Shown in pieces: positions 40,800 through 45,506 of a stretch of DNA of 64,000 nt. The position numbers were made by a program, and so were the translations under genes. This stretch comes from Escherichia phage W115: the sequence record ON286974. The stretch is one strand, 5' to 3'. Position 1 is the stretch's first letter, and every line of letters begins with the position of its first letter. The notes beneath the pieces are model-generated. The model did not search any database. It was given only the letters and a program-made list of their open reading frames with translations, and was not told where the DNA came from.

Positions 40800-40824
40800 A
40801 TTGGGGGCTTTCGCCCCCTTTGTT
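40800..40824. terminator. GC hairpin GGGGGCTTTCGCCCCC between td and nrdA
   Basis: Perfect 6-bp stem with 4-nt loop; the same element (reverse complement) recurs after gene 34 at about 52291. Confidence 0.4.
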
Positions 40825-42044
40825 TATACTGCCATTTGAGCGGTGATGGCTGGATGGCTTTGATAGTTGTGAATTTTAAAGTCTTTCGGAGTTTTTGTCA
40901 ATACCTCATCTAAAGATTTAAATTCCGGCAACTCAATTGTTGGTTTATCAAACGGAACACGGCTTAACTGTTCCATGACTTGATCAAAATGGTTTTTGTA
41001 AATGTGAGTATCTCCACCAGAGAAAATCAGTTCTCCTACCTCAAGATCACACATTTTCGCTATGATGTGAGTTAACAGCGCATAGCTGGCAACATTAAAG
41101 GGCAAGCCCAAAAAGCTGTCTACGCTTCGCTGAAACCACATACAAGACAGTTTACCTTCATTGACGTAGAATTGTACGAACGGATGACATACACCCAATA
41201 CAGCATTATGTGTTCCTTGTACGTTCCATGAGTCAATAATGATCCGGCGATCCGTTGGATTGTTTTTAATTTGTTCGATCACATTTTGTAACTGGTCTTC
41301 CCAAATCTTCGGGCGATAGACATATTCTTCATCGTCTTTAGTGCTTGATGTGTCTACGTCCATACTAACAAACATCGTGGTATCCGGTGCTATAATATCC
41401 CCACCCAGATAATCACTATCAAGCAGATAACCGAAATAACCGTCATCTACCCATTCCTGGAATCCCCACAAGCAATATGCATCATTAACAAAATTAGATT
41501 GAGTCTTCCAGTGGTCTGCTACCAGAATATAATCAAACTCTTCATAACGCATACCACGCCAGATAGCACATAAACGGTCTTCTGTTTCATTGGTTGGCGT
41601 AAAGTCTTCTACCCACGGGTGTTTAAATGTATGTGTATATTTGCTCTTAACGCGCTTAATTTTGATTTCACCGTGTGGATGAATCGGTTTGCGTCGCCAT
41701 GCCATGCCATACATATTGCCGACATTATAACCATTGAATCGCAAAGGATTCTTTTCTTTCATATCAAGACAGTTGCCGCGCCAAATGTCGAAGGCTTCTT
41801 CGTCAAACTTACCGCGTGTAATTTCCTGTAAGCGACGGCGGTCAAGTGATCCCTCCATAAACCATAGCAACTCGCCAATTATAGAGGCTGTAGCCATCTT
41901 TTTGGTGGTCAGTAATGGAAAACCCTTGCTTAAATCAATTCGCATCTCTGCGCCGAATTTAGAGAGCGTACCTACCCCCGTGCGGTCTTCACGAGGCCAG
42001 CCATTATCAAGAACATCACGCAACAGTTTCAAATATTCTTTCAT
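40824..42044 (-). CDS. td: thymidylate synthase with a roughly 130 aa internal insertion
   Basis: 406 aa; ThyA blocks (DRTGVGT, LLTTKK, YGMAWRR, ...SWNV..., HPFVQFYV, LSC, RSVDSFLGLPFNVASYALL, C-terminal HPAITAQMAV) plus an extra segment between the YG.QWR block and the DQL..VI..IK helix. Confidence 0.85.
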   Translation of the reverse strand: MKEYLKLLRDVLDNGWPREDRTGVGTLSKFGAEMRIDLSKGFPLLTTKKMATASIIGELLWFMEGSLDRRRLQEITRGKFDEEAFDIWRGNCLDMKEKNPLRFNGYNVGNMYGMAWRRKPIHPHGEIKIKRVKSKYTHTFKHPWVEDFTPTNETEDRLCAIWRGMRYEEFDYILVADHWKTQSNFVNDAYCLWGFQEWVDDGYFGYLLDSDYLGGDIIAPDTTMFVSMDVDTSSTKDDEEYVYRPKIWEDQLQNVIEQIKNNPTDRRIIIDSWNVQGTHNAVLGVCHPFVQFYVNEGKLSCMWFQRSVDSFLGLPFNVASYALLTHIIAKMCDLEVGELIFSGGDTHIYKNHFDQVMEQLSRVPFDKPTIELPEFKSLDEVLTKTPKDFKIHNYQSHPAITAQMAV

Positions 42045-42378: not shown

Positions 42379-42948
42379 TTACGCCTTCTTACGTTCTAAA
42401 ATTTGTTCGCTGATCAGGTAATCATCAAGGAAGTAATTATGTTCTTCTTTGGTTGCAAAGTCAAAATATAATTCCTGAATCATTTCCTTAGAGATTCCAA
42501 CATCATATTCAAATGGATCGTTGACCCCTGAACGTTGAACATACGTTAACACAATACGGTCCGCAAAGTCAACCGCTTTTTCAATCAGGGAAGGTCCGCC
42601 GATAACACTTACCAAACCTTGCGTTTTCTCTAGGGCTTTTAACAGATCCTTCAATTCAATTCCAGTATACACATCAGGTTGGTCGCCGTTTTTAGCTTTC
42701 GGTTCTGGCTTGCTGGTATCGGTACTAATAACCACATTCAAACGTCCCCAAAGTGCTTTAGGCAGACTTTCAAAGGTATTACGTCCCATTACTACCGCAG
42801 CAAAATCAACCTCGCCAATAGTGCGGATTTTAAAGTTTTCCATATCTTTTTTGATTGGACGCCCCCACGGTAAACCGCCTTTAAAACCAAAAGCCCAATT
42901 TTCATCCGACATTTTAGTGTCACCAATCGCAAATACACATTGAATCAT
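42379..42948 (-). CDS. frd: dihydrofolate reductase
   Basis: 189 aa; DHFR pattern (GLPWGRP...DF, VVMGRNTFESLP, VISTD); N-terminus MIQCVF.. like T4 Frd. Confidence 0.85.
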   Translation of the reverse strand: MIQCVFAIGDTKMSDENWAFGFKGGLPWGRPIKKDMENFKIRTIGEVDFAAVVMGRNTFESLPKALWGRLNVVISTDTSKPEPKAKNGDQPDVYTGIELKDLLKALEKTQGLVSVIGGPSLIEKAVDFADRIVLTYVQRSGVNDPFEYDVGISKEMIQELYFDFATKEEHNYFLDDYLISEQILERKKA

Positions 42949-42963
42949 AATATAAATCTCCTA

Positions 42964-43293
42964 TCAAATCAGTTTAAAGAAGTTTTCGTTTACATTTTCT
43001 TCGGTGATTGCTGTCTTAAATTCTTGACCGTTATCCGGTGTGATGAAATAACGGTCAGAATAATCACGATAACGTTTTAAGTGAGATACACCAACATTAA
43101 CACCATTTTCCCAAAAACGAAAGGTAATCATTTTTGGTTCATATCGATAGTCGCTGGTTAACACAGTACCATCACCGCGACGGGCTTCATAAACCGTAAT
43201 ACATTCACGATTAGCGGCTTTTAGGCATTCTTCAATAGTGCCACATGAGATAATACTTACTTTTTCATCTACGATTTGTTCTACAGTCCACAT
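42964..43293 (-). CDS. hypothetical protein (109 aa)
   Basis: Trimmed to ATG with AGAGAGGA RBS. Confidence 0.5.
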   Translation of the reverse strand: MWTVEQIVDEKVSIISCGTIEECLKAANRECITVYEARRGDGTVLTSDYRYEPKMITFRFWENGVNVGVSHLKRYRDYSDRYFITPDNGQEFKTAITEENVNENFFKLI

Positions 43294-43321: not shown

Positions 43322-43355
43322 TACATTATACACTATTGCGTTACGCTGTCAACTC
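43322..43355 (-). promoter_or_regulatory. sigma70-like early promoter 18 (TTGACA-16-TATAAT)
   Basis: Read on the minus strand upstream of the 42964..43293 ORF. Confidence 0.5.
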
Positions 43356-44357
43356 TTTTTCAAAAGTTTTTACGATATACATGATAGTGCTCAATTCAGA
43401 CGGCGCGACTGTTTCTGTGTAGCCATCCGGCATATCTTCTTTTGAGATATAGGAAGTTTTACCTTTCATCGCTTCCTTGATCTTGTTCTCTAATTCTAAG
43501 ATCTTTTGACCGTCTTGTAAAGTCAATTCATAAAAGATCTCGTGGTCGAATTTAGATTTCGCTGATTGGTTTCTCATTCGTTCTTGTGTTGTTAAATTGG
43601 TTATTCCAAATTTGATTCCATAAAAACATGATTTTTTAATTAGTTTTTGAATGTATAGTGTTCCGTGTTTTAAAGTGTTGTATCCAAATCTAGCACAACT
43701 TGAACATCTATTTCCTGATAGAAACCCGTTAATTGTTGGTGTAAATGTATGACCATTACAACATTGCAATTTTAATTTTGTTGTATTTCCTTTCCATTCA
43801 CCTATAAATCCATTGAATAGTATGTTTTCTTTATCAAAGATTGGTTTAATTCTAATAATATAGTCATCTTTGGGTATTGATTTTAATTCTTTCAGTTTTA
43901 ACCGGTAGCATTCTTGGCAGCGTCTTCCATTTTTGAAATTGTTAATTGTTGGTGTAAATGTATGTCCATTACAACATTGTAGATTTAATTTTGTCGATGA
44001 CCTTTTCCATTCACCTATAAATCCATTGAATAGTATGTTTTCTTTATCAAAGATTGGAGTTAACTTATGTAGATGTTCATCTTCCGAAAAAGATTTCATC
44101 CTTCCATTCTTTATGTCTGCACATTTATGACAGCGATTTCCAGCGTTGAAATTGTTAATTGTTATTGTAAATGTATGACCATTACAACATTGCAATTTTA
44201 ATTTTGTTGTATTTCCTTTCCATTCACCTATAAATCCAATAAACTTTATATTTTCTTTAAAGAATGTTGGTTTTAATTCTTCGTAGTAATTCACTGGAGA
44301 TTTTGAATTGTGAGCTTTTCTAACCCATTCAATCTCATGTGCTTGACGTACTAACAT
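43341..44357 (-). CDS. protein with three tandem Cys/His zinc-ribbon repeats and a C-terminal T5orf172/GIY-YIG-like region
   Basis: Trimmed to ATG with GGAGGA RBS; three roughly 70-aa repeats (GFIGEWKGNTTKLKLQCCNGHTFT.TINNF..GNRC..C); C-terminus GTLYIQKL...FYGIKFGITNL...R resembles T5orf172. Confidence 0.5.
   Translation of the reverse strand: MLVRQAHEIEWVRKAHNSKSPVNYYEELKPTFFKENIKFIGFIGEWKGNTTKLKLQCCNGHTFTITINNFNAGNRCHKCADIKNGRMKSFSEDEHLHKLTPIFDKENILFNGFIGEWKRSSTKLNLQCCNGHTFTPTINNFKNGRRCQECYRLKLKELKSIPKDDYIIRIKPIFDKENILFNGFIGEWKGNTTKLKLQCCNGHTFTPTINGFLSGNRCSSCARFGYNTLKHGTLYIQKLIKKSCFYGIKFGITNLTTQERMRNQSAKSKFDHEIFYELTLQDGQKILELENKIKEAMKGKTSYISKEDMPDGYTETVAPSELSTIMYIVKTFEKELTA
43730..44275. 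repeat. three tandem copies of a roughly 210-bp coding repeat (high nucleotide identity)
   Basis: Near-identical blocks starting near 43730, 43937 and 44150 (aattgttggtgtaaatgtatgaccattacaacattgcaattttaattttgttg...), by eye. Confidence 0.7.
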
Positions 44358-44384
44358 AATTTTATCCTCCGTTGTTTCTATGGG

Positions 44385-44418
44385 TGCATTATACATTACC
44401 ACATCAGCATGTCAATAC
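44385..44418 (-). promoter_or_regulatory. sigma70-like early promoter 19 (TTGACA-16-TATAAT)
   Basis: Read on the minus strand upstream of the zinc-ribbon repeat gene. Confidence 0.5.
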
Positions 44419-44436: not shown

Positions 44437-44477
44437 GCAATAAAAAAAGCCTCCCCGAAGGAAGGCTTTAAAATTCA
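44437..44477 (-). terminator. intrinsic terminator downstream of gene 32
   Basis: aagcctcc-ccgaa-ggaaggctt hairpin plus T-run on the minus strand. Confidence 0.5.
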
Positions 44478-45446
44478 TTACATCCCTAACAGAGCGTCAA
44501 GATCATCCAGATCAGAAGCGGAGGAAGTACCGCCACCCAGATCCAGCGATGCCATCAGGTCATCAGCGGAAGAATCTAACGCCGTGCTAGCTGCGTTAAT
44601 ACCAACTACAGTGCTAGCTGCGTTAATACCAGAATCGAATGCATTCATCTGTGCGTCAAAATCGTCAAGCTGGCTGTTAATCGCTGCCGCAGCACTGGAA
44701 GCCGCAGCACCAGCTACCATAGAAACGCCCATAGTTTTCTTAAATTTGGTTTCCAGTTCATCGAACGGTTTAAACTGGCTAGGCGCTACAATCTCACTCA
44801 GGTCAACCATGTTTTCCATCAGATATTTCTGATATGCTTCGTCTTCAATTTTCGGAAGCTGTGATTGCTGCATGAAACGAGAATCATCATAGTTCTGGTG
44901 TTTATCAACCTTCTTAGCTTTCAGGAGGAAGTTAGCACCGGAGAACACACAAGTTACATCTACCGGAACTTCGCCCATGTCGGTATTCACGTTCACCATT
45001 GCAACGATCTTATCATAAATTTTCTGACCGAAGCGGAATTTGAATACCTTACCTTCATTTTCTGGTGCTTGAGGATCTTTCAGTACCAGAATGTTTGCGT
45101 AGTAAGACGCTTTACGCTTAATCAGTTGCCATTCGGTTTTATCGGTATTGTACAGGTCTTTTTCGTTAATATATTTGCACACAGGGCAAGAATCAAAATC
45201 ACCGTGGGTGCTGGAGCAGTTTTCCCAATACCATTTGCCATTAACTTTGAAGGAATGGTTTACCAGTTTCACAATCGGCAGACCGTCTTCTGTCTTCGAC
45301 GGCAGGAAGCGAATCAGGGCTTCACCGTTACCTGCTGCATCAGTCTTAATCTTCCACTCTTTCGGATCTTCTTTGGAGAAACCGTTGCCACCTTTCAGTG
45401 CGGCCAGTTGAGCTTGCAGTTTGGAAGAATCTTGGCGTTTAAACAT
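44478..45446 (-). CDS. 32: single-stranded DNA-binding protein gp32
   Basis: Start at ATG (MFKRQ...) with AAGGAA RBS; LIRFLPSK...[22 protein letters not shown]...[18 protein letters not shown]... nearly co-linear with T4 gp32; acidic C-terminus. Confidence 0.9.
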
Positions 45447-45506
45447 ATTCACTATTCCTTCTTTTGATTGATTTACTAGACTATTATACAGATTTAAATT
45501 TACTTG

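Follow-up and report, generated by a model that had tools for sequence, protein, structure and literature searches.

Gene content between gene 32 and frd

The stretch of DNA analyzed here, hereafter the window, comprises 64,000 nucleotides of Escherichia phage W115 (record ON286974), an RB49-like (Krischvirus) T4-type coliphage. The 338-aa frame proposed from the letters alone near gene 32 is a real minus-strand gene (43341..44357 in the ORF list, ATG at 44357, stop codon at 43341-43343). Its product matches PHROG 681 'endonuclease' (E 1.5e-73), and a 338-aa protein 99% identical to it is called on an independent 171-kb metagenome contig, a sister genome that is 95.5% identical over 7 kb. The ATG at 44357 was preferred because it has a GGAGGAT ribosome binding site 6 nt upstream (44364..44370, minus strand, read from the sequence) and is the start also found on the sister contig. 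A longer reading of 353 aa from a GTG at 44402 was discarded, as this codon falls between the −35 and −10 boxes of promoter P1, described below.

The left-hand flank of the cassette is gene 32 (44478..45452, minus strand, placed by annotated homologues), which encodes the essential single-stranded DNA-binding protein and whose counterpart on the sister contig matches PF08804. From the gene 32 stop codon to the endonuclease ATG there are 120 nt, within the replication and nucleotide-metabolism cluster 59-32-frd-td; the gene therefore adjoins an essential, conserved neighbor, as expected of a free-standing phage homing endonuclease gene (HEG). For gene 32 the terminator scan found an intrinsic terminator at 44446..44469 (minus strand), AAAGCCTTCCTTCGGGGAGGCTTT and then a T run; it delimits the cassette region on the upstream side, and all aligned relatives keep it.

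On the right-hand side lies a 109-aa gene homologous to RB49p239 (42964..43293, minus strand, product starting MWTVEQ), for which no Pfam family was matched, and then frd (42379-42948). Placing the 338-aa frame between frd and gene 32 was thus right, except that this further gene intervenes. A 120-aa reading of the same downstream frame in the mechanical ORF list starts too early, the MWTVEQ start being common to all relatives. The endonuclease itself begins with an 18-aa leader, MLVRQAHEIEWVRKAHNS (44304..44357, minus strand), kept even in the otherwise diverged Whisky-type allele, and no paralogue of either of its domains was found elsewhere in the 64-kb window.

Three CapR-type zinc-finger units

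The leader is followed by three tandem units with a period of 213 bp or 71 aa, all on the minus strand: unit 1, a CapR homology domain (aa 19-89, 44091..44303; putative zinc ligands C57, H61, C76 and C79), unit 2 (aa 90-160, 43878..44090; C128, H132, C147 and C150) and unit 3 (aa 161-231, 43665..43877; C199, H203, C218 and C221). Repeat analysis, including Tandem Repeats Finder (2.5 copies, 80% matches, score 685), bears out the three consecutive repeats of about 70 aa seen in the sequence-only reading, and its CC...H...C..C pattern is present in each as QCCNGH...RCxxC. Pfam CapR (PF21817) matched the protein in three stretches at 80.4 bits (gathering cut-off 24.2; E 1.1e-22), far above chance, and DUF4379, a 'probable treble clef zinc finger', reached 24.9 bits against a cut-off of 24.5. 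The two ligand pairs of a CapR module, which lie about 15-26 residues apart, are found in all three units as C-x3-H...C-x2-C. Across 79 diverse units the ligands at unit positions C39 (first) and C58 (third) never vary, the fourth (C61) is conserved in at least 90% and the second is His in about 70%. In the model of unit 3 (pLDDT 83.6) the C-x3-H follows a β-hairpin and the C-x2-C sits at a helix start, whereas a classical zinc ribbon has its two ligand pairs on β-hairpin 'knuckles'; the modeled fold is thus closer in appearance to a treble clef. What remains of the proposed zinc-ribbon array is its modularity and its zinc-finger character, as indicated by the CapR matches, with the ribbon itself giving way to a fold that resembles a treble clef.

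CapR, a repressor of the PLE satellite, binds DNA through Cys residues, and its zinc-dependent, sequence-specific binding was demonstrated by EMSA and a Cys-to-Ser mutant (PMC8096241); by analogy, zinc-dependent DNA binding by the window modules seems likely. The published CapR motif is CxxC...CxC (PMC8096241), hence ligand identities differ in detail from those of the window.

The repeats had been described as nearly identical at the DNA level and their expansion as recent, and neither description survives measurement. Whole units share 58-62% of amino acids and 66-69% of nucleotides pairwise, and DNA identity rises to 78-81% in a 156-nt core and to 79-90% in the best sub-core (codons 12-49 of the unit). 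Nei-Gojobori estimates between units give a dS of 0.77-1.0, so the expansion is old, and a dN/dS of 0.37-0.43. Window units are up to 72% identical to units of other alleles, about as similar as they are among themselves. The copy number of three is real: the sister contig carries the same three-unit gene, in frame, with 16 nucleotide differences. A two-unit variant (P0004) with exactly 71 aa fewer was seen only on a contig of 1054 bp covered about 3x; it resembles a recombinant of units 2 and 3 and was set aside, being indistinguishable from an assembly collapse.

A diverged T5orf172/MUG113-like nuclease domain

The remaining 107 residues (aa 232-338, 43344..43664, minus strand) form a predicted T5orf172/MUG113-like domain of the GIY-YIG superfamily, with the motif residues Y235, K249-F-G251, R260, E290, K294 and D311-G-Y-T-E315-T316. 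In an alignment of 21 homologues, down to 21% identity, the pattern Y, K-x-G, R, E, K, D-G-x-T-E-T is invariant or nearly so: K249, G251, R260, E290, D311, G312, T314, E315 and T316 are invariant and Y235 is nearly invariant. The catalytic Tyr of strand 1, Arg of helix 1 and metal-binding Glu of T5orf172/MUG113 domains are all present, as assigned by motif order rather than by superposition. An AF2 model of the domain (pLDDT 95.6) has a β-β-α-β-α topology consistent with the GIY-YIG-type fold, in which helices flank a three-stranded sheet.

Direct profile searches with the window sequence are silent. PF10544, PF13455 and PF01541 are absent among the Pfam matches listed for aa 225-338 (E up to 10) and for the whole protein (E up to 1), and NCBIfam listed nothing at E up to 1. 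An alignment profile of the C-terminal region searched against PDB sequences gave a chance hit only (E 2.1); Foldseek with the C-terminal model found nothing significant in the PDB, with SLX1 appearing only at E 3-5. The assignment comes instead through intermediate sequences. Among the 21 aligned homologues, 16 match MUG113, 13 T5orf172 and three GIY-YIG. A 42%-identical relative scores 30.5 bits with T5orf172 (cut-off 20, profile positions 1-101 of 101) and 29.2 bits with MUG113 (cut-off 22.3); a 50%-identical relative reaches 20.8 bits with T5orf172 and a 71%-identical one stays below threshold at 15.1 bits. By this sequence chain, the domain is homologous to T5orf172/MUG113, and the resemblance noticed earlier is upheld by relatives that pass the Pfam thresholds, the window's own domain having no direct match. 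The canonical GIY-YIG profile PF01541 is reached by just three of the 21, all distant homologues (best 22.9 bits, cut-off 22.6), and since the window protein has no PF01541 match, it is not a member of the T4 Seg family.

The T5orf172 domain of ICP1 Odn is a proven nuclease whose activity is abolished by the conserved-Glu mutant E180A (PMC8263062), and it is the only member of the family with demonstrated cleavage that we found in the literature (PMC8263062). By analogy, the window domain would be expected to cleave DNA.

A cassette between two perfect early promoters

A promoter scan placed P1 (44388..44415, minus strand), a TTGACA-16 nt-TATAAT element matching the sigma-70 consensus at 12/12 positions, upstream of the endonuclease gene; the GEC-3S record has a promoter annotated at the equivalent position. 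From its position, P1 probably drives the endonuclease gene as an early-type promoter. A second perfect TTGACA-16-TATAAT, P2 (43325..43352, minus strand), has as its −35 box the endonuclease codons L336-T337 (GAG TTG ACA GCG TAA, E L T A stop) and, from its position, would drive the 109-aa gene that follows. The cassette thus sits between two near-identical copies of a perfect early promoter, and in relatives P2 follows every cassette type found at the site.

T4 seg and mob genes likewise embed a promoter of the neighboring gene in the endonuclease coding region (PMC2988022). T4 homing endonucleases are transcribed from middle or late promoters and early ones are not known (PMC2988022), which makes the apparent early expression of the window gene atypical.

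Polymorphism of the site among Krischvirus genomes

The locus matched 65 phage records, 23 of which cover at least 80% of its 4 kb and many only about 75%. Krischvirus relatives differ in what lies between gene 32 and the gene preceding frd: the site is either empty (JSE, PHB13), occupied by an unrelated 109-aa ORF (G5211, kvi) or occupied by a gene of the present type, a presence/absence polymorphism at a collinear locus such as homing genes produce. The number of units ranges from one in MIZ4 and two in Sf20, through three in the window and four in GEC-3S, to five in RB49 and Whisky and six in Delraymugoa. At least three lineages occupy the site, with nuclease domains only about 43-52% identical and with common 5′ and 3′ junctions. 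Many Krischvirus alleles have nuclease domains 81-92% identical to that of the window among the matches listed. At high nucleotide identity, public phage records reach about half of the window gene at most.

Comparing eight HEG+ with four HEG− loci, we found fixed differences confined to the insertion junction, with none in the flanks compared (the final 400 nt of gene 32 and the initial 420 nt of its counterpart downstream of the cassette), and no candidate target site or immunity polymorphism. A divergent JSE-type allele of the downstream gene does not track the empty site, for PHB13 is empty yet has the RB49-type allele. Empty sites could be deletions rather than naive targets.

A probable homing endonuclease gene and its alternatives

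We consider it probable that the window gene is a selfish, free-standing T5orf172-type homing endonuclease gene with a CapR zinc-finger array, resident in an RB49-like phage. Sequence and models together show the architecture of the protein; its activity and homing we infer. Weighing against this reading are the silence of the direct profile searches, the lack of a target-site signal in the comparison of HEG+ and HEG− loci, a downstream-gene allele that does not follow the cassette, the chance that the empty sites are deletions, and the atypical early promoter. The type of architecture was already described (Netter 2021, Barth 2023), and the gene is a new member rather than a new system or mechanism. 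Both parts of the original proposal fit. That the protein is nuclease-like and binds nucleic acid through a modular array of zinc fingers is supported by the CapR matches and by the relatives passing T5orf172/MUG113 thresholds; that the gene is mobile in the manner of homing endonucleases is made probable by the presence/absence and copy-number polymorphism of the gene 32 locus. The parallel drawn to segG-type elements of T4 applies to the gene 32 locus but not further: segG lies on the opposite side, with gene 59 as its other neighbor (PMC2988022), and its product is of another GIY-YIG family.

The enzyme would resemble beads on a string, three CapR-type modules with one zinc each jointly reading an extended DNA site, near which the divergent C-terminal domain would cut. 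The gene has its own consensus sigma-70 promoter and is probably expressed early. In a mixed infection the enzyme would cleave cassette-less relatives near the gene 32/frd region, and repair by recombination with the cassette-bearing genome would give the broken genome a copy of the gene, along with the embedded promoter of the downstream gene. Where units are similar enough to recombine unequally, or are swapped between alleles, this would change module number (from one to six) and order, and presumably with them the target specificity. The duplicated flanking promoter would offer a route to precise loss of the cassette, regenerating empty sites.

Some credence, though clearly the minor share, goes to a domesticated derivative, in which the same architecture now serves the phage. 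One variant is a sequence-specific exclusion or anti-satellite nuclease, comparable to Odn (a T5orf172 nuclease acting as a defense-type weapon; PMC8263062) or to SegG-type marker exclusion of co-infecting relatives. The other is a regulator in the manner of PLE CapR, whose finger alone acts as a promoter-binding repressor at the −35 region (PMC8096241), or of I-TevI autorepression, perhaps acting on the duplicated P1 and P2. The presence of the gene in a large share of Krischvirus genomes, with several lineages intact at one site, the early consensus promoter, in contrast to T4 HEGs, and the two near-copies of one promoter around the gene would all suit such a role. However, many near-identical phages lack the gene or carry the unrelated ORF, so it is dispensable; the retained catalytic residues argue against a pure repressor; and there is neither a satellite-derived or foreign DNA-binding domain, in contrast to the RepA_N of Odn, nor a link to any specific target. 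Nothing specifically supports the defense or counter-defense role that had been offered as an alternative.

A more speculative pair of proposals, judged jointly as rather unlikely, starts from the variation in unit number. The Krischvirus gene 32/frd site may be a natural allelic series on one scaffold, with one to six CapR-type modules in at least three lineages, in which each module may read a short DNA sub-site and specificity may be roughly additive, re-written by gain, loss and shuffling of units. As a second possibility, the protein might also bind the two near-identical flanking early promoters as an autoregulator.

It is improbable that the gene is a decaying or inactive HEG remnant, kept only for the embedded promoter of the downstream gene. 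The HEG life cycle predicts degeneration, the window nuclease domain is too diverged for Pfam detection, and P2 in the last codons is an arrangement that favors HEG retention (Edgell review, PMC2988022). Against this, the 338-codon frame is intact and retains every family-invariant nuclease residue and each of the 12 putative zinc ligands, the dN/dS between units is well below 1, the frame is kept in the sister genome despite the nucleotide differences, and the nuclease domain is well conserved in the many Krischvirus alleles noted above. That the triple repeat is an artefact of mis-joined or mis-counted repeats is highly improbable: tandem repeats are prone to mis-assembly and the two-unit contig shows that data sets do contain products of collapse or recombination, but the units differ at 31-34% of nucleotides and are therefore placeable by short reads, the independent 171-kb contig has the same three, and isolate genomes carry one to six at the same locus.

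As a probable homing endonuclease gene, this member would extend the T5orf172/CapR-finger class to RB49-like T4-type coliphages. Its nuclease domain has diverged below Pfam detection in Krischvirus and is therefore missed by profile-based surveys; that of Barth, Dunham & Seed 2023 picked genes by PF10544/PF13455 profiles (PMC10448857), and RB49, Krischvirus, JSE and GEC-3S have zero occurrences in its text supplements. The locus would illustrate, in compact and well-sampled form, how HEGs come and go next to an essential gene during their life cycle, with gain, lineage replacement, change of module number and precise loss between duplicated promoters. We suggest the annotation 'T5orf172-like GIY-YIG-superfamily endonuclease, three CapR zinc-finger domains' instead of 'hypothetical protein'. 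Were additive module reading true, the allelic series could yield a recognition code for the CapR-type finger class and a route to programmable GIY-YIG-type nucleases.

Comparison with known systems

Among the closest counterparts are RB49p240 (RB49ORF239c) and its Krischvirus orthologues, labeled 'endonuclease' in RefSeq, which share the locus order gene 32, this gene, RB49p239, frd. Phage T5 encodes T5.141, with two units and the same C-terminal domain (29% identity, E 8e-27), whose likeness to RB49ORF239c was already annotated by its depositors. The window protein differs from these relatives in the number and order of its units.

Repeated CapR/DUF723/DUF4379 fingers are on record in T5orf172 HEGs, as is recombination between such repeats (PMC10448857). 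Like the ICP1 members gp174, gp165, gp121, gp53 and gp130, the window protein has N-terminal CapR-type Cys-rich modules, often repeated, and a C-terminal T5orf172/MUG113 domain (PMC8096241, PMC10448857). Further features in common are degenerate nucleotide repeats whose recombination would add or delete modules, a place beside essential replication genes and variable presence between isolates. The present case departs from them in a nuclease domain too diverged for a direct PF10544/PF13455 match, in ligands of the C-x3-H...C-x2-C type rather than the CxxC...CxC described for CapR, and in host and phage family, being a Straboviridae coliphage rather than a vibriophage.

With T4 SegG the window gene has in common that it is a free-standing nuclease gene adjoining gene 32 in a T4-type genome, with a promoter of the neighboring gene inside the coding sequence and a catalytic fold of the GIY-YIG superfamily (PMC2988022). 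It lies on the frd side, however, and has a CapR finger array, which SegG with its canonical GIY-YIG domain lacks; the early-type consensus promoter of the window gene also sets it apart from the T4 HEGs with their middle or late ones.

The likeness to ICP1 Odn (gp88, origin-directed nuclease) lies in the C-terminal T5orf172 domain with conserved Arg and Glu and without the helix 1 His/Tyr typical of classical GIY-YIG enzymes. The DNA-binding part of Odn is, in contrast, a satellite-captured RepA_N and not zinc fingers, and its role is anti-satellite defense, not homing. Finally, I-TevI, the GIY-YIG endonuclease of the T4 td intron, similarly tethers a catalytic domain of this fold to DNA-binding modules that include a zinc finger, and also represses its own promoter (PMC8096241, PMC10448857); unlike in the window protein, its nuclease is N-terminal, the opposite order, and its single zinc finger is a spacing element.

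ORF and genomic setting

The window comes from an RB49-like coliphage of T4 type (genus Krischvirus). The ORF that the sequence-only reading placed at 43341-44357, here an endonuclease-type gene, is confirmed and runs on the minus strand (338 aa from an ATG). Gene 32 (44478-45452) flanks it on one side and frd (42379-42948) on the other, and a small extra gene for a 109-aa protein (42964-43293) lies between the ORF and frd; gene 32 and this small gene are also on the minus strand. A GTG at 44402, given as the start in a mechanical ORF list, was rejected. The ATG is preferred because this GTG falls within a promoter, after its -35 box and before its -10 box, and the ATG is preceded by GGAGGAT (44370-44364). 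In an independent contig, a 99%-identical 338-aa protein was called with the identical ATG start.

Elsewhere in the neighbourhood, td (thymidylate synthase; 40824-42044, minus strand) encodes 406 aa that match Pfam ThyA in two separate stretches, the second aligning residues 250-406 with profile positions 110-266, which implies a mid-enzyme insertion of roughly 120-140 aa; td of RB49 and GEC-3S is similarly long (about 407-410 aa). In the C-terminal region of gene 32 (44584-44631, minus strand), a perfect 21-nt direct repeat with a spacing of 27 nt gives gp32 two copies of the peptide GINAAST in its acidic, Ala/Ser-rich tail.

Domain architecture

The protein very probably joins three CapR-type zinc fingers to a T5orf172-like nuclease of the GIY-YIG superfamily. 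Its triple repeat, already seen in the sequence-only reading, is made of 71-aa tandem units (period 213 bp) that span aa 19-89, 90-160 and 161-231. All three units match the CapR homology domain in Pfam (PF21817, 80.4 bits, E 1.1e-22); DUF4379 ('probable treble clef zinc finger') is matched marginally, a zinc-ribbon family only below threshold. The consensus from 79 diverse units is GF.GEWKG..TK..L.C..GH.......F..G.RCP.C, with no variation at the first Cys or at the Cys that opens CxxC; at least 90% of the units keep the last Cys and about 70% have the His. The Cys/His motif proposed earlier is real, but the second Cys of its 'CC' is not conserved across units, so that the ligand set predicted from the alignment is likely C-x3-H...C-x2-C.

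Taken alone, the C-terminal domain had no match in Pfam, NCBIfam or PDB sequences, and structural support for a nuclease fold is moderate since Foldseek against the PDB returned nothing significant. The domain can be aligned with 20 homologues at identities down to 21%; K249, G251, R260, E290, D311, G312, T314, E315 and T316 are invariant and Y235, I252 and K294 nearly so. Pfam matches among the 21 aligned sequences are to MUG113 (16/21), T5orf172 (13/21) and GIY-YIG (3/21). Against T5orf172 (cut-off 20), a homologue of 42% identity scores 30.5 bits over the full profile and one of 50% identity 20.8 bits. The conserved residues and the profile matches of homologues bear out the nuclease-like C-terminus and, taken with the moderate structural support, are sufficient to assign it as a divergent T5orf172/MUG113-type domain that retains the predicted catalytic Tyr, Arg and Glu. 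The sole enzymology that we found for the T5orf172 class concerns ICP1 Odn, a DNA-cleaving enzyme that loses its activity when the Glu equivalent to the conserved Glu of the window protein is mutated (PMC8263062).

Allelic variation at the locus

A search of 5.8 billion proteins returned 72 homologues; where the C-terminal domain is almost unchanged, the unit number is 1, 2, 3, 4, 5 or 6. ORF T5.141 of phage T5 combines two units with this C-terminal domain (29% identity, E 8e-27); its depositors noted a similarity to RB49ORF239c, which occupies the present locus in RB49. Phages of Escherichia, Vibrio, Salmonella, Klebsiella and Aeromonas account for most of the 214 phage records that contain the domain. 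Same-architecture homologues P0041, P0044 and P0045 (30-35% identity) come from Salmonella enterica and E. coli, where their contigs of up to 1.47 Mb, 194 kb and 67 kb are presumably chromosomal DNA of the bacteria; one of the three proteins, named 'GIY-YIG nuclease family protein', occurs on 68 contigs.

Krischvirus genomes are collinear at the locus, except that the stretch from the gene 32 terminator to the 109-aa gene varies. The site is empty in JSE and PHB13 and holds an unrelated 109-aa ORF in G5211 and kvi; elsewhere it carries one unit in MIZ4 (182 aa), two in Sf20 (281 aa), three in the window (338 aa), four in GEC-3S (392 aa), five in RB49 and Whisky (485-486 aa) and six in Delraymugoa (542 aa). 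At least three nuclease-domain lineages are present: window/RB49, MIZ4/Sf20 (about 52% identical) and Whisky (about 43%). All end in ...KSFEKELTA or ...KTFEKELTA, and the window and Whisky types share the start MLVRQAHEIEW. By this comparison, the polymorphism appears to behave like that of a homing-endonuclease site.

The unrelated ORF (MFLNATLSQKSDK...; L004:2142-2471 in G5211, L012:2629-2958 in kvi) is 98% identical between its two copies, belongs to no Pfam family and stands where the endonuclease is absent. An HNH_3 + AP2-domain endonuclease lies between genes 59 and 32 in MIZ4 (L005:978-1574) and kvi (L012:878-1474), at the position of T4 segG, where the window has no gene. With this gene on the 59 side in relatives, the gene 32 neighbourhood is probably a two-sided homing-endonuclease hot spot.

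Duplicated promoters and junctions

At the empty JSE site, a single consensus early promoter separates the gene 32 terminator from the RBS and ATG of the downstream 109-aa gene. This promoter occurs twice in the window, once on each side of the cassette: predicted promoter P1 (44415-44388, minus strand; TTGACA-16-TATAAT) precedes the endonuclease gene and P2 (43352-43325, minus strand; likewise a 12/12 consensus match) precedes the 109-aa gene. The P2 -35 box doubles as the last endonuclease codons (GAG TTG ACA GCG TAA, E L T A stop), and the same P2 variant follows every cassette type in relatives, the unrelated ORF included. In T4 seg and mob genes, the promoter of a neighbour lies inside the endonuclease ORF, an arrangement thought to favour retention, and early promoters are not known to drive T4 homing endonuclease genes (PMC2988022).

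The hybrid junctions of the empty sites differ, with P1 boxes and a P2-type leader in JSE and P1 with a P1-type leader in PHB13, which suggests that each site would have lost its cassette precisely, in a separate event, through recombination between the two promoter copies; independent insertions are a possible source of the same difference. The downstream 109-aa gene is 97-100% identical among most Krischvirus examined and 74-75% identical in JSE (L003:2145-2474). The JSE DNA is about 83-86% identical in the downstream flank and about 99% in gene 32 on the other side, which makes the cassette site a sharply defined mosaic boundary.

Functional interpretation

On balance, we infer that the gene is, or was until recently, an active homing endonuclease; the grounds are its domain layout, the conservation of its catalytic residues, an intact ORF under constraint and the polymorphism at the locus. 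Domain matches and polymorphism likewise lend support to the original proposal of a putative homing-endonuclease-like nuclease with a modular zinc-binding array. As to a target, the flanking 400-420 nt showed no fixed differences between genomes with and without the cassette, the junction excepted, and cassette presence does not follow the downstream-gene allele type.

Domestication as an exclusion or anti-satellite nuclease, or as a regulator, is unlikely but deserves consideration. CapR is a repressor from the Vibrio cholerae PLE satellite that targets the -35 region of the ICP1 capsid promoter, its binding depends on its Cys residues, and it is thought to have originated from ICP1 T5orf172 homing endonucleases (PMC8096241). 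A decaying homing-endonuclease remnant is a distinctly poorer account of an intact, constrained ORF.

Age of the repeat array

The sequence-only reading supposed near-identical DNA repeats and a recent expansion, and neither held. Between whole units, protein identity is 58-62% and DNA identity 66-69%, with 78-81% in a 156-nt core; codons 12-49 of each unit are best conserved (79-90% identity) and the N-terminal helix and tail reach 36-58%. Synonymous divergence among units is 0.77-1.0 and dN/dS 0.37-0.43, so the array is old and under purifying selection. Window units are up to 72% identical to units of other alleles, about equal to the similarity within the array.

A 267-aa protein equals the window protein less exactly one unit, with the crossover within TKLN|LQCC; as it comes from a 1-kb contig at roughly 3x coverage, it may be a true recombinant of units 2 and 3 or a collapsed assembly. 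That the three-unit structure itself is an assembly artefact is hardly credible, since the same gene, with 16 nucleotide differences, is found on an independent 171-kb metagenomic contig (95.5% identity over 7 kb).

Comparison with known systems

The earlier likening to T4 segG stands as far as the gene 32 locus is concerned, but segG lies on the other side of gene 32 (PMC2988022) and the window gene, having no PF01541 match, is not a member of the Seg family. In RB49 and other genomes, the orthologues already bear the annotation 'endonuclease' or 'GIY-YIG nuclease family protein'. The T5orf172 homing endonucleases described by Barth, Dunham and Seed have the same architecture, read as 'beads on a string', with fingers gained and lost via repeats and with essential genes adjoining (PMC10448857); the window gene is like them in its finger array, nuclease and essential-gene neighbour. 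The Krischvirus clade is absent from the text supplements of that survey and is too diverged for the Pfam profiles used there (PMC10448857), and its locus presents an unusually complete allelic series.
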